DNA of 64,000 nt from a virus: UHGV virus genome UHGV-1362809. The stretch is one strand, 5' to 3'. Below are positions 38,607 to 49,984 of this stretch, in pieces; the stretch's first letter is position 1, and the number at the start of each line of letters is the position of its first letter. The notes beneath the pieces were generated by a model, which worked only from the letters and a program-made list of their open reading frames with translations, was not told the DNA's origin and ran no database searches. A program made the translations under genes and the position numbers.

Positions 38607-39908
38607 TTAACCCTCTACGAAAAACTGTTCTGGTTCTACCCAATTACATCCAATATCTTTACGATATTGCAACAAGAATGTTTTTATCTTTTTGATACTC
38701 TTGTATGCTTTTTCTTTTGACTTTTCAAAATCTTTATCATAGCCAACAATATAAGCTTGACGGTCTTCCATCCGATGGTACAACCTGCCATTTTTAGAAT
38801 ATTCTGCTTTCATAGGCATACAATTTTTATCAGCACCCAAAATAACAAACTTATTGCTTGTAGGCAAAATATTATTATAAATCATTTGAGAACAACAAGT
38901 TCCTGAATTAAGACATACGCAAGTATAATAACCCTCTTTTACTTTTACTTTTTTCAAACCTGCCATATCAGCATATAGGTCTCCATAATTTGAGCAAATA
39001 TAAGGAGCAACAAACTGCGTTGGAAATCCCTCACGACAGGTAAACTCCATAAACATAGGAGCTCCCTTACTTGGTTTTATACAGTTGAGATCAATATACC
39101 CCCTATAATCATTTTCTATTAAATAAGATTCAAGCCTATTTAAAATCTTATCTACTGCTTTAGGAACCTTATTTCTTTTAACCAGTTTAAATACAGTACC
39201 GACTTCACCAGTCAAGATATTAGAAGTATCCCCTTCCAATAACTGCTTGTATTCTTGGTCAAAAACGACTACATTCCCTACCCAGCCTGTACCGTTAAAA
39301 TATCCACCGACACATAATTCTTTACCATTAATTTTCTTTTCAAGAATACAGGACTTATTTTTTAGATAAGATAAAGAATCTTCATGAATAATATCTAAAG
39401 CTTCCTCTTTACTAAAAGGAATATAGGTGCAGCACTTAGGAGAATTTGATTTAAAAACGACGTCCTTGTGCTTTTTAATAAAGGCTTCCAACTGTCCTAT
39501 ATCTAAGGTATCAATATTAGGAGTCGCTTTAACACCAAAATCCTCACACATACTTTTACCAAAAGGTCTATCTTCTTCAAGGTCATATACTTTATTCGTG
39601 TGAAGATTTATGTTCGGGACATTATATTTTTTAGAAAGATCTACATATTTTTTATAGTTCTTTTCATAATAGTCCTTTTGAGCATTAAAAACTACAAAGT
39701 CCGAATTTTTGTATAATCCCTCTAAATCTCCATTGTACAAAGTAGTATTAGGATTGGAGCAAATAAAGTCGTCTGACTGCTCTTTTGTATCACAAAAATA
39801 CAAGTTCAATTTATGACCGCTATCCAAAAAACTTTTTTGGAGCCCTTGTAAATTTAAAAAGTCTACATATCCAATATTAAAACCCATTTTTTTATTTCCT
39901 ATGCGCAT
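38607..39908 (-). CDS. hypothetical protein, possible ATP-grasp ligase
   Basis: EKKINGKELCVGGYFNG resembles the ATP-grasp E-x-x-i-x-G-x-E-hs-V strand; size 433 aa. Weak. Confidence 0.35.
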   Translation of the reverse strand: MRIGNKKMGFNIGYVDFLNLQGLQKSFLDSGHKLNLYFCDTKEQSDDFICSNPNTTLYNGDLEGLYKNSDFVVFNAQKDYYEKNYKKYVDLSKKYNVPNINLHTNKVYDLEEDRPFGKSMCEDFGVKATPNIDTLDIGQLEAFIKKHKDVVFKSNSPKCCTYIPFSKEEALDIIHEDSLSYLKNKSCILEKKINGKELCVGGYFNGTGWVGNVVVFDQEYKQLLEGDTSNILTGEVGTVFKLVKRNKVPKAVDKILNRLESYLIENDYRGYIDLNCIKPSKGAPMFMEFTCREGFPTQFVAPYICSNYGDLYADMAGLKKVKVKEGYYTCVCLNSGTCCSQMIYNNILPTSNKFVILGADKNCMPMKAEYSKNGRLYHRMEDRQAYIVGYDKDFEKSKEKAYKSIKKIKTFLLQYRKDIGCNWVEPEQFFVEG

Positions 39909-40624
39909 TTGTGTAAAATAGGACTTAACATATAGTCCAAAACACTAATGTCCTTTTTAGTAAGATTGTTTATTTCAGAAATCTCTATAACCCCTACCCT
40001 ATCTAAATCCAAAGAGGCTAAAAAGTTTTTTATTTTTTTAGGCGATAAACCATTTTCCACATTGTAATGACATGACCTATAAAACTTAGGGTCTAATGCG
40101 TCTACGTCAATACTTATACAAATTTTTTCGTCCTTAGGAATATCCCCAAACCCACAGATACTCAAGTTTTTAAGATTAGATGTTTCCTTAAAATCCGTAC
40201 TTCTTGTACCTATTGCATATACCTTATTTACAGGATACGAAACTAAAGATACAACATCTGGGTCTCCGACATGCCCTAAACAAGCTAAACCCATGCCATG
40301 TTCTTTTTTAGAAGGGGAAGTATCCCAAGTATTAGCATCTAAGTGTGCGTCTATATAAACAACATTAGGATACTCTTTCAAATAAGGAGCTAAAACTGCA
40401 ACATTGAGACAATGATTAGACGTAAAGTACACATTGGGAAGGTCACCTCTCGGTGACACTTCCTTAAATGTATCCTTCAACACACCATACCAGTTATGGT
40501 CTTTTAATCTATCCTTAGGATCAACGTCATAGGTATAAACCCCTCCTATATGACTAACATATTTGGACACCGACGTATCACAAGGATATTTTCCACCGTA
40601 CTTACAGTACAATCCTTTAATCAT
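39899..40624 (-). CDS. arginase/agmatinase/formiminoglutamase-family ureohydrolase
   Basis: VYIDAHLDANT (DAHxD), GTRS, SIDVDALDP...ENGLS (SxDxDxxDP...GGL), SNHC in place of GGDHS. Confidence 0.65.
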   Translation of the reverse strand: MIKGLYCKYGGKYPCDTSVSKYVSHIGGVYTYDVDPKDRLKDHNWYGVLKDTFKEVSPRGDLPNVYFTSNHCLNVAVLAPYLKEYPNVVYIDAHLDANTWDTSPSKKEHGMGLACLGHVGDPDVVSLVSYPVNKVYAIGTRSTDFKETSNLKNLSICGFGDIPKDEKICISIDVDALDPKFYRSCHYNVENGLSPKKIKNFLASLDLDRVGVIEISEINNLTKKDISVLDYMLSPILHKCA

Positions 40625-48724: not shown

Positions 48725-49421
48725 TCTTGTTGTTTAATAGCCTATAATCATTAAACAACCATTTAATAAAGCTTACAGGGTATTCTTTTGTACCATAGCT
48801 ATTATAGTTCACACCTTTCCCCTGCTGTTTAAAACTATACAATAATTTACAACATTTAACAAAGTCTTTTTTACTCTTAATAAGACCAAAAAACCGTTTC
48901 AATAAATATCTGTCAAAGGAATTTTTTACATATTCTTCATAGCCTATCTTATAATTCCCTGCAAACCAGTTGTTGTATAGTTTTAAAAGAAATTCTGCTC
49001 TTTTATCGCCTATACTGGAACAGTCTAATAGATAAAATAGTTCTCTTCCTATTTTACCTTTTGGACGATACCCTACAAAATTAGGCAAATAATCAATATT
49101 ATACTGCTTATCCTTTGCAACAATGTTTATGTCTTCATAGTGAAAAGGAATAGATACATAACTGCTAAACTTATTAACCTTACAGTCAACAATAGGACAT
49201 CCAATCTCTGTTAAAAACAAAACATTGTCAAATAAGACAATAGTGCTTTTTGATTTAGATAGTAGGTCAAAGCACTTGAAAAAAGTATTAGCACAAGGAC
49301 ATAATAGATAATCAGAATCTTTTATCTTTTTACCTTTGATTATACCAACCTTCTTTCCGTGTTCTTTTAAAGCTAAATAAACATCAGCTACGCTATTATT
49401 GCATATACCTACGAGCTTCAT
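48684..49421 (-). CDS. hypothetical protein
   Basis: 245-aa ORF between folE and the nucleotidyltransferase gene. Confidence 0.45.
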   Translation of the reverse strand: MKLVGICNNSVADVYLALKEHGKKVGIIKGKKIKDSDYLLCPCANTFFKCFDLLSKSKSTIVLFDNVLFLTEIGCPIVDCKVNKFSSYVSIPFHYEDINIVAKDKQYNIDYLPNFVGYRPKGKIGRELFYLLDCSSIGDKRAEFLLKLYNNWFAGNYKIGYEEYVKNSFDRYLLKRFFGLIKSKKDFVKCCKLLYSFKQQGKGVNYNSYGTKEYPVSFIKWLFNDYRLLNNKIVHFGENENGNSK

Positions 49422-49984
49422 TTTTTACCTCTTATATGATTAATCAATTTTTGCAGCCTAATAGATGTATCCACTTTATACTTGGTTTGGATACTTGAGG
49501 CTTTAGATGCAAATTTAGATAAATCTAATGTATTGGTGGTAACATAATCTAACAAGTTTCTTTCTATAAAAGTTTCCCAACCTTTACTGTATACAGCTCT
49601 TCCACGGCAAACATCATAATAAATAGATTGATTAGTAAATAGACATGCCTTTAATAAATTGTCTACTTTTATTTCAAATCCATAGTCCGTCAAATTTTTA
49701 GACTGGTCTAAATACCACAAATCATATTTATTAATACCGTCTGAAAAGCGTGTACCACCAAAGTTATTTACAGTAGTGGAATACTTAGATAGTAGCCAAT
49801 TTATAGAAGCCTTATCTTTACACTCTATAACTAAGTCTAAGTCTACATATTTTTTACCTGTAAGAATAGAGGTAACACAGTCTCCATACATATATACGTT
49901 GGTACAGTATTTTGTAAGATACCTTATAAAGTCTATGCTACAAGTACGGCACATAAGAGAGTTCCAATTTTGAAGAATCTTCAT
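49418..49984 (-). CDS. Pol-beta-superfamily nucleotidyltransferase, CCA-adding/poly(A)-polymerase head-domain-like (minimal, 188 aa)
   Basis: YMYGDCVTSILTGKKYVDLDLV aligns with the CCA-enzyme GGAVRDLLLGRPVKDRDWV motif. Confidence 0.5.
   Translation of the reverse strand: MKILQNWNSLMCRTCSIDFIRYLTKYCTNVYMYGDCVTSILTGKKYVDLDLVIECKDKASINWLLSKYSTTVNNFGGTRFSDGINKYDLWYLDQSKNLTDYGFEIKVDNLLKACLFTNQSIYYDVCRGRAVYSKGWETFIERNLLDYVTTNTLDLSKFASKASSIQTKYKVDTSIRLQKLINHIRGKK

Follow-up and report, generated by a model that had tools for sequence, protein, structure and literature searches.

The stretch analyzed here, a 64,000-nucleotide part of the virus genome UHGV-1362809 (the window), contains an unbroken string of 14 minus-strand genes at positions 37135–49984. 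The locus is probably a hypermodification island that replaces guanine in the phage DNA with a 7-deazaguanine base, which would then be decorated with a sugar and amino acids. It is read as a hypervariable 7-deazaguanine hypermodification island because its glycosyltransferase is linked to QueC and because cassettes are replaced between closely similar flanks. The identities of the genes, the protein folds, the synteny and the replacement of the cassette were observed. All open reading frames (ORFs) listed by the first-pass annotation lie on the minus strand, co-oriented as it had noted, and abut or overlap. The window spans positions 160001–224000 of a 237,166-bp metagenomic contig (JGI 3300045988, Ga0495776_003993), and the source genome is an uncultured jumbo phage of about 237 kb. 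Locus L014 is 100% identical to the window.

FolE, GTP cyclohydrolase I, is encoded at 48032–48706 (minus strand, with the start as called on L014) and matches Pfam PF01227 at 1.8e-22. The identification is secure, and the enzyme performs the first step toward 7-deazaguanine. The gene lies upstream of a transglycosylase gene in all sister phages, with identities of 86% in L003 and 49% in L005.

Gat-QueC, a class II glutamine amidotransferase joined to a QueC PP-loop ATPase, is encoded at 40621–42081 on the minus strand (Pfam QueC 3.7e-50, GATase_6/7 2e-5). With the start given by the L007 gene calls it has 486 amino acids, and MCSINGV, probably the true start, leaves a Cys at the N-terminus. 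Both the N-terminal GATase domain with Cys1 and the QueC domain were found, the protein carrying SGGLDS and CGNCGPC. It aligns with phage Gat-QueC proteins at 34–35% identity over 95–97% coverage, the best being those of the PhiXhv jumbo phages (1e-78). Its identity is secure, and both FolE and Gat-QueC stand as the first-pass annotation had named them. Gat-QueC shows only the capacity for an archaeosine-type (G+-type) base. Gat-QueC and DpdA of phage 9g suffice for 2′-deoxyarchaeosine (dG+) in E. coli, where host queD is needed (PMC6884629). That FolE, Gat-QueC and a transglycosylase can install a G+-type base, if the host supplies QueD and QueE, is supported by homology and published experiments.

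The glycosyltransferase (42095–43123, minus strand) had been assigned to the GT-B class with an E-x7-E motif. Its Pfam match was sub-threshold, and a single-sequence search of the PDB gave nothing useful. An AlphaFold2 model from a 14-sequence alignment had a predicted local distance difference test (pLDDT) score of 90.7. Foldseek matched this model to GlgM (8e-12), BshA (3e-11) and MshA (6e-11), and also to SenB and PimA. The assignment was borne out as a GT4 enzyme of the retaining type with a BshA/MshA-like fold, and the glutamate pair, E271-x7-E279, is nearly invariant. Homologs are rare, with just 14 clusters in 5.8 billion proteins, and pattern scans for relatives in IMG/VR and the JGI metagenomes returned none.

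Neighborhood counts for the glycosyltransferase cover the eight loci with usable flanks. QueC or Gat-QueC lies within four genes of it in all eight, a Gfo/Idh/MocA oxidoreductase (Gfo) is present in seven and an LmbE-type deacetylase in four. The gene order in the window is Gfo, LmbE, a 313- and a 315-amino acid protein, glycosyltransferase, Gat-QueC. L012, which is phage PhiXhv-12, has Gat-QueC, LmbE, glycosyltransferase and a Gfo-like gene, plus a leucyl/phenylalanyl (L/F)-transferase and a Fem/GNAT fusion. L099 has Gat-QueC, homologs of the 313- and 315-amino acid proteins, PIG-L and, after intervening genes, glycosyltransferase and Gfo. L102 has Gat-QueC, PIG-L and, further on, a homolog of the 315-amino acid protein and the glycosyltransferase. 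In L096, Gat-QueC and the glycosyltransferase are followed at a distance by an ATE_C-like gene, GNAT, a CxxCxxCC protein and Gfo.

In L098, L100 and L101, the glycosyltransferase and Gfo genes sit directly beside QueC or Gat-QueC and a DpdA-type transglycosylase, within contiguous que operons of varying order. L100 is a minimal, seven-gene operon (QueD, QueE, FolE, QueC, Gfo, glycosyltransferase, DpdA1-like). L101 runs QueE, QueD, FolE, Gat-QueC, glycosyltransferase, Gfo, TGT-like (TGT, tRNA-guanine transglycosylase). In L098 the order is QueD, then FolE and QueE, then glycosyltransferase, Gfo, Gat-QueC and DpdA1-like, with other genes between the three groups. The module of Gat-QueC, LmbE, glycosyltransferase and Gfo is also found in cultured Xanthomonas and Erwinia jumbo phages (PhiXhv-12/15/16, Ep026 and Ep032).

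The association with QueC spans glycosyltransferase identities of 27–52% and two unrelated transglycosylase types, which argues that the glycosyltransferase and Gfo act in the deazaguanine pathway. The search of relatives for co-occurrence, as proposed at the outset, strengthened the idea of a 7-deazaguanine system extended by such tailoring enzymes. A pterin-glycoside pathway was also considered, a tetrahydrobiopterin glucosyltransferase being among the GT4 structural matches. It was rejected on account of the deazaguanine-specific QueC/QueE company at the glycosyltransferase loci.

Comparison with sister phages showed that the locus is exchanged as a cassette. In L003 the flanks are 85–91% identical in nucleotide sequence, the flank proteins 90–99% and the transglycosylase gene 75%. 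Nevertheless, L003 has no similarity at all to window positions 37131–46485, with a break at 37131. The variable cassette therefore reaches 37135, and the limits first drawn for the cluster (38607–49984) were too narrow: a 315-amino acid and a 175-amino acid gene outside them belong to it.

Alternative cassettes were located at 11424–17801 in L003, 11475–19516 in L005 and 5826–15598 in L011. They contain one or two short QueC-like proteins, an Amidoligase_2 protein and one to three Fem-like paralogs, and sometimes add a PurD-like ATP-grasp protein, or MetK and a methyltransferase. All three loci have a conserved lysine-2,3-aminomutase-like radical SAM enzyme (72–75% identical) and a partner of about 400 amino acids. 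This content suggests β-amino-acid amide derivatives of carboxy-deazaguanine. The window cassette is a mosaic, combining the sugar module seen in PhiXhv-12, L099 and L102 with amide-forming genes seen in L005 and L011.

It is unlikely that FolE, Gat-QueC and the DpdA-like enzyme make only the known dG+ or dPreQ0, and that the sugar, deacetylase and ligase genes act elsewhere, for instance on the envelope of the host, on a phage protein or in the metabolism of nucleotide sugars. Gat-QueC and DpdA alone do yield dG+ (PMC6884629), the enzymes with the most similar GT4 structures have small molecules or lipids as substrates, and neither G+ nor 7-cyano-7-deazaguanine (preQ0) has an acceptor hydroxyl. 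Nevertheless, in the eight loci inspected the glycosyltransferase was found only beside QueC or Gat-QueC, and in L098, L100 and L101 also beside the transglycosylase in a que operon. An unrelated function would not preserve such adjacency across the observed range of glycosyltransferase identities.

The transglycosylase gene (46367–47788, minus strand) had been annotated as the DNA transglycosylase DpdA. The protein had no Pfam or PHROG match, and a single-sequence PDB search gave nothing useful. Set against tRNA-type and DpdA enzymes, a 13-sequence profile matched the archaeal ArcTGT best (2.9e-11), followed by DpdA 7ui4 (1.4e-3) and bacterial TGT (2e-3). Invariant in the 13 sequences are DSGG(F)Q (D123), LD157, T-S-D282 and a zinc site, C328xC330xxC333 with H357, and these residues align with the ArcTGT and DpdA motifs. 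The AlphaFold2 model had a pLDDT of 77 and a predicted template modeling score (pTM) of 0.80, and all 49 of its Foldseek matches in the PDB at E<1e-3 are TGTs. Profile, fold and motifs thus agree with the annotated superfamily, but the enzyme is not close to DpdA1 (hhalign probability 11%).

With NCBIfam DpdA it scored 15 bits, where the cutoff is 200. By tblastn against phages, only 20 jumbo-phage records matched, none of them from Cellulophaga, Campylobacter or haloviruses. Close structural relatives are limited to the jumbo phages GR11A, NCTB and Motura, with template modeling (TM) scores of 0.76–0.83. By sequence similarity the enzyme did not fall within the described DpdA subfamilies (bDpdA and DpdA1–4), a result that for DpdA3 and DpdA4 involved no direct comparison.

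Members of this transglycosylase family are found within full que sets. In L021 the order is QueD, QueC, TGT-like, QueE, FolE, and in phage Motura it is QueC, AsnB-like, TGT-like, QueE, FolE; the TGT-like gene that ends the L101 operon is another member. The window gene itself shares its string with FolE and Gat-QueC. The Motura enzyme has been predicted to insert deazaguanine into DNA (Iyer et al. 2021, PMC7824862). On the basis of these neighbors and that prediction, the enzyme is treated as a new, jumbo-phage DpdA-like clade, predicted to exchange guanine for deazaguanine in DNA. The DNA substrate is suggested by genomic context.

Improbable, in our assessment, is a role for the QueC-like/TGT-like pair in conjugating deazaguanine to protein (deazaguanylation of the Cap9/Cap10 type) or in placing an archaeosine-like base in tRNA. 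The QueC-like and TGT-like proteins of type IV CBASS (cyclic oligonucleotide-based antiphage signaling system) do carry out nucleobase–protein conjugation, and the best profile match to a solved structure is the tRNA enzyme. Nevertheless, the fold matches cover the TGT core only, the sequence match to ArcTGT does not extend past about residue 358 of the 582-residue chain, and Pfam recognizes no domain. Gat-QueC is, moreover, a full-length homolog of the phage type that gives dG+ in phage 9g DNA, and phage TGT homologs studied so far all act on DNA (PMC10516641). Hypervariable cassettes also suit a DNA arms race.

Very improbable is a free 7-deazapurine metabolite, glycosylated or peptidyl as in huimycin or roseomycin, that acts during infection as an inhibitor or signal instead of entering DNA: small-molecule precedents exist (HuiG, which attaches N-acetylglucosamine (GlcNAc) to a preQ0 derivative, and amide synthetases for 7-carboxy-7-deazaguanine (CDG)), but secondary-metabolite clusters lack nucleic-acid insertion enzymes (genome-mining preprint), the co-operonic transglycosylase here appears catalytically intact by its motifs, and no transporter or regulator genes were seen. 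A DNA hypermodification island accounts better than any of these alternatives for the swapping of cassettes and for the conserved adjacency of QueC, glycosyltransferase, Gfo and transglycosylase.

Among the tailoring genes, Gfo (45544–46356, minus strand) encodes an NAD(P)-dependent oxidoreductase with an EKP motif and a Pfam match at 1.3e-6, in line with its annotation as a sugar oxidoreductase. It is a conserved partner of the glycosyltransferase, with homologs at or near that gene in L012, L096, L098, L099, L100 and L101. The LmbE/PIG-L-type N-acetylhexosamine deacetylase (45011–45535, minus strand) has both AHPDDD and HPHH. This assignment also holds, its match to PF02585 (2.6e-6) being barely above the cutoff (28.4 against 28.2 bits). 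A single-sequence PDB search with LmbE gave nothing useful. Homologs occur in L012 (1.4e-12), L102 and L099.

The ATP-grasp-like protein noted earlier (38607–39908, minus strand) proved to be a PurD-like amide ligase, with matches to GARS_A (1.3e-8), GARS_C (1.6e-4) and PurD in the PDB (2e-7 over residues 110–423). A homolog in the alternative cassette of L005 is 27% identical. The adjacent gene (39899–40624, minus strand) encodes a short, 241-amino acid metallo-amidinohydrolase. Membership in the arginase family was confirmed by Pfam (2e-14) and by the metal-binding motifs DAHLD and SIDVDALDP. Its relatives in the PDB are Nω-hydroxy-L-arginine amidinohydrolase (3.3e-9), arginases and DcsB. 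A role in hydrolyzing the formamidine of G+, as had been proposed, found no support: the closest relatives of known structure work on guanidines of the arginine type, and the gene was seen only in the window's cassette variant.

Two or three GNAT/FemAB-like proteins had also been predicted. What was found are three paralogs of one rare phage family with weak similarity to Acetyltransf_6. The first, of 315 amino acids (43136–44083, minus strand), matches Pfam Acetyltransf_6 at 0.003 and has homologs in L012, L099 and L102. The second, also of 315 amino acids (37659–38606, minus strand), is related by BLAST to proteins of L011 (three copies), L005 (three) and L003; one to three paralogs of its family occur in every alternative sister-phage cassette. 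The third, of 313 amino acids (44067–45008, minus strand), has a homolog beside Gat-QueC in L099 (6444–7442; 31% identity, 4.8e-27).

The family has just 34 relatives in 1.84 billion representatives, and two of 32 members match Acetyltransf_6, weakly (about 7e-4). Its profiles matched no solved structure in the PDB. For the first of the three proteins, an hhalign comparison of the Fem-like family alignment A7 with alignment A8 gave a probability of 94.7% (E 6e-8). The 313-amino acid protein, aligned with family A7 (probability 47%, E 1.9e-4), is a probable distant member. Single-sequence comparisons of the 313- and 315-amino acid proteins with a first, small family alignment were not significant; a deeper alignment linked them. 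The last gene of the variable cassette (37135–37662, minus strand) encodes a 175-amino acid protein with a CxxCxxCC motif (CSGCGRCC; phrog_33999, 6e-25), and cassette L096 likewise has a CxxCxxCC protein.

These assignments point to the following pathway, in which we infer DNA as the target, the identity and attachment site of the sugar and the order of steps. FolE would start 7-deazaguanine synthesis from GTP, with QueD and QueE supplied by the host or encoded in another part of the genome. Gat-QueC would then convert CDG into a G+- or preQ0-type base, which the TGT-fold, DpdA-like enzyme may exchange for guanine in the phage DNA. Decoration with a sugar is likely; in its predicted chemistry, the GT4 enzyme and Gfo would add to the deazaguanine a sugar, probably an N-acetylhexosamine from a UDP-sugar, with N2 and the nitrogen of the C7 amide or amidine as candidate points of attachment. 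N-glycosylation has a precedent in huimycin: there HuiG places GlcNAc on N2 of a preQ0 derivative (PMC7439116).

LmbE would deacetylate the sugar, and the PurD-like ATP-grasp and Fem-like proteins may acylate the freed amine with one or more amino acids. A possible role of the arginase-like enzyme is to trim a guanidino group. The QueC-family protein Cap9 and the amide synthetase RoyL are known to couple CDG to amines. The decorated base would shield the DNA from restriction enzymes and from defenses that sense plain deazaguanines, and pressure from both is proposed to drive the swapping of cassettes.

Several findings weigh against this interpretation. GT4 enzymes usually glycosylate hydroxyls, and plain deazaguanine bases have none. 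Neither QueD nor QueE was detected by phmmer and family hidden Markov models in the 64 kb window, in L014 or in the 4.9 kb beyond the window, and the complete preQ0 set (FolE, QueD, QueE and QueC) is not present within the window. The best solved sequence relative of the transglycosylase is ArcTGT, a tRNA enzyme. Its gene is also a core gene in relatives without nearby que genes (in Vibrio, Pseudomonas putida and Xanthomonas jumbo phages the order is a Cas4-like nuclease, then at a distance TGT-like, a 138-amino acid gene and a sigma factor), and its function need not depend on the cassette. The Fem-like assignment is weak, co-occurrence for the arginase-family, 313- and 175-amino acid proteins is scant or nil, and the system is known here from the genes of a metagenomic contig. 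On balance, of the earlier proposal of deazaguanine DNA modification with sugar and amide tailoring, the linkage of glycosyltransferase and Gfo with QueC and the que-set transglycosylases support the core, but the arginase/formamidine role lacks support.

The closest described system is that of phage 9g and the Queuovirinae, in which FolE, QueD, QueE, Gat-QueC and DpdA1 make dG+. It shares with the window FolE, a full-length Gat-QueC (34% identity), a guanine transglycosylase and a presumed purpose in restriction protection. Unlike it, the window has a transglycosylase that is not DpdA1-like, no QueD or QueE, and nine extra tailoring genes unknown in the described dG+, dPreQ0, dPreQ1, dADG, dDG and dCDG pathways. 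Achromobacter phage Motura (Iyer et al. 2021) has a transglycosylase of the same family (25% identity, TM 0.76) together with QueC and FolE, but has no glycosyltransferase, Gfo, LmbE or ATP-grasp protein.

In bacillithiol and mycothiol synthesis, a GT4 GlcNAc transferase (BshA or MshA) is followed by an LmbE-type deacetylase (BshB or MshB) and amide ligation to the freed amine. The logic of GT4, LmbE and ligase is the same in the window, and BshA and MshA are among the best structural matches of its glycosyltransferase. The acceptor would nevertheless be a DNA base or deazaguanine instead of malate or inositol, and the putative ligases come from other families (PurD-like ATP-grasp and Fem-like).

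Huimycin, dapiramicin and the peptidyl-deazapurines are glycosylated (N2-GlcNAc) or amide-linked 7-deazaguanines built by a FolE/QueD/QueE/QueC core, but they are free actinomycete metabolites whose clusters have no transglycosylase. Phages also glycosylate pyrimidines after replication as a counter-defense (T-even glucosyl-5-hydroxymethylcytosine (5hmC), 5hmC glycans and glycosyl-5-hydroxycytosine), and the T-even DNA glucosyltransferases have the GT-B fold. Those bases provide a hydroxyl acceptor, whereas the base here would be a purine analog.

More tentatively, and with somewhat less than even confidence, the DNA packaged by this phage and by the cultured jumbo phages of Xanthomonas and Erwinia may carry an aminoacylated amino-sugar 7-deazaguanine, while sister cassettes would attach β-amino acids by means of QueC-like ligases, giving a combinatorial family served by a new DpdA clade. 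To our knowledge, eight 7-deazaguanine derivatives occur in phage DNA, none with a sugar or amino acid. No description of a 7-deazaguanine in DNA that bears a sugar or an aminoacyl group turned up in full-text literature searches, and the paper on the PhiXhv phages makes no mention of such a modification. What is new beside the known base system are the tailoring modules, the strict QueC linkage, the polymorphism of cassettes and the clade of transglycosylases.

If this is correct, a glycosylated purine-type base would be seen in DNA for the first time, and DNA glycosylation would be extended from pyrimidines to a purine analog by new enzyme chemistry. It would also explain a possible escape of phages from the recently described DNA glycosylase defenses that target deazaguanines. 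The association of glycosyltransferase, Gfo and QueC provides a compact genetic marker, and the cultured phages named above, together with the L100 operon, make the prediction directly testable. Decorated bases matter as well for sequencing bias and for the engineering of restriction-resistant DNA.

Upstream of FolE, two genes encoding 245- and 188-amino acid proteins (48684–49984, minus strand) had been counted as part of the cluster. No link to the system could be demonstrated, and their membership is uncertain. Neither protein had a family or PDB match, including a single-sequence PDB search with the 188-amino acid protein. Between the window and L003 they are 55% and 81% identical, compared with 96–99% for the flanks. 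In the 188-amino acid protein (49418–49984), the segment GDCVTSILTGKKYVDLDLVIE recalls the nucleotidyltransferase motif G[GS]x9-13DxD; database searches lent this no support.

Between FolE and the transglycosylase gene (47798–48114), a presence/absence polymorphism was observed. Strains that are 99% identical carry there a DUF7487 gene of 506–512 amino acids (L007, 8445–9965). The remnant in the window is a 96-amino acid ORF, 54–75% identical to the N-termini of paralogs at 24053–25243, 16718–17962 and 25230–26000. DUF7487 genes are probably a mobile, homing-endonuclease-like family.

A nucleotide search of the cluster against the INPHARED phages gave no match, and eight of ten proteins had none in PHROGs. 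The GC content is uniform at about 34%. The island is surrounded by a jumbo-phage replication and nucleotide-metabolism module, with thymidine kinase, an intein-split NrdD with NrdG, family A DNA polymerase, RNase H, DnaB, RecA, dUTPase, topoisomerase I and MetK. The unrelated phage L096, which has the Gat-QueC and glycosyltransferase module, encodes at 5165–8149 a family A DNA polymerase fused to a domain resembling uracil-DNA glycosylase. Seven methyltransferases and metK elsewhere in the window had been cited as fitting heavily modified DNA. MetK is present, but the methyltransferase ORFs number five (four N6_N4 and one MT-A70), and the argument is peripheral.

The anaerobic ribonucleotide reductase NrdD (5098–7415 and other fragments) is interrupted by inteins, and three intein-domain ORFs occur in the window. 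A radical SAM ORF at 5098–5721 (207 amino acids) was considered as a QueE candidate and rejected; with its position directly next to NrdD and its CxxxCxxCYN motif of the activase type, it is NrdG-like. Positions 51703–54298 form a 2.6 kb region without long ORFs and without an Rfam match. The palindrome TGTTCTTTAGAACA occurs in it three times (51943, 52178 and 52327), compared with 0.1 expected by chance, and the region could be regulatory or an origin.

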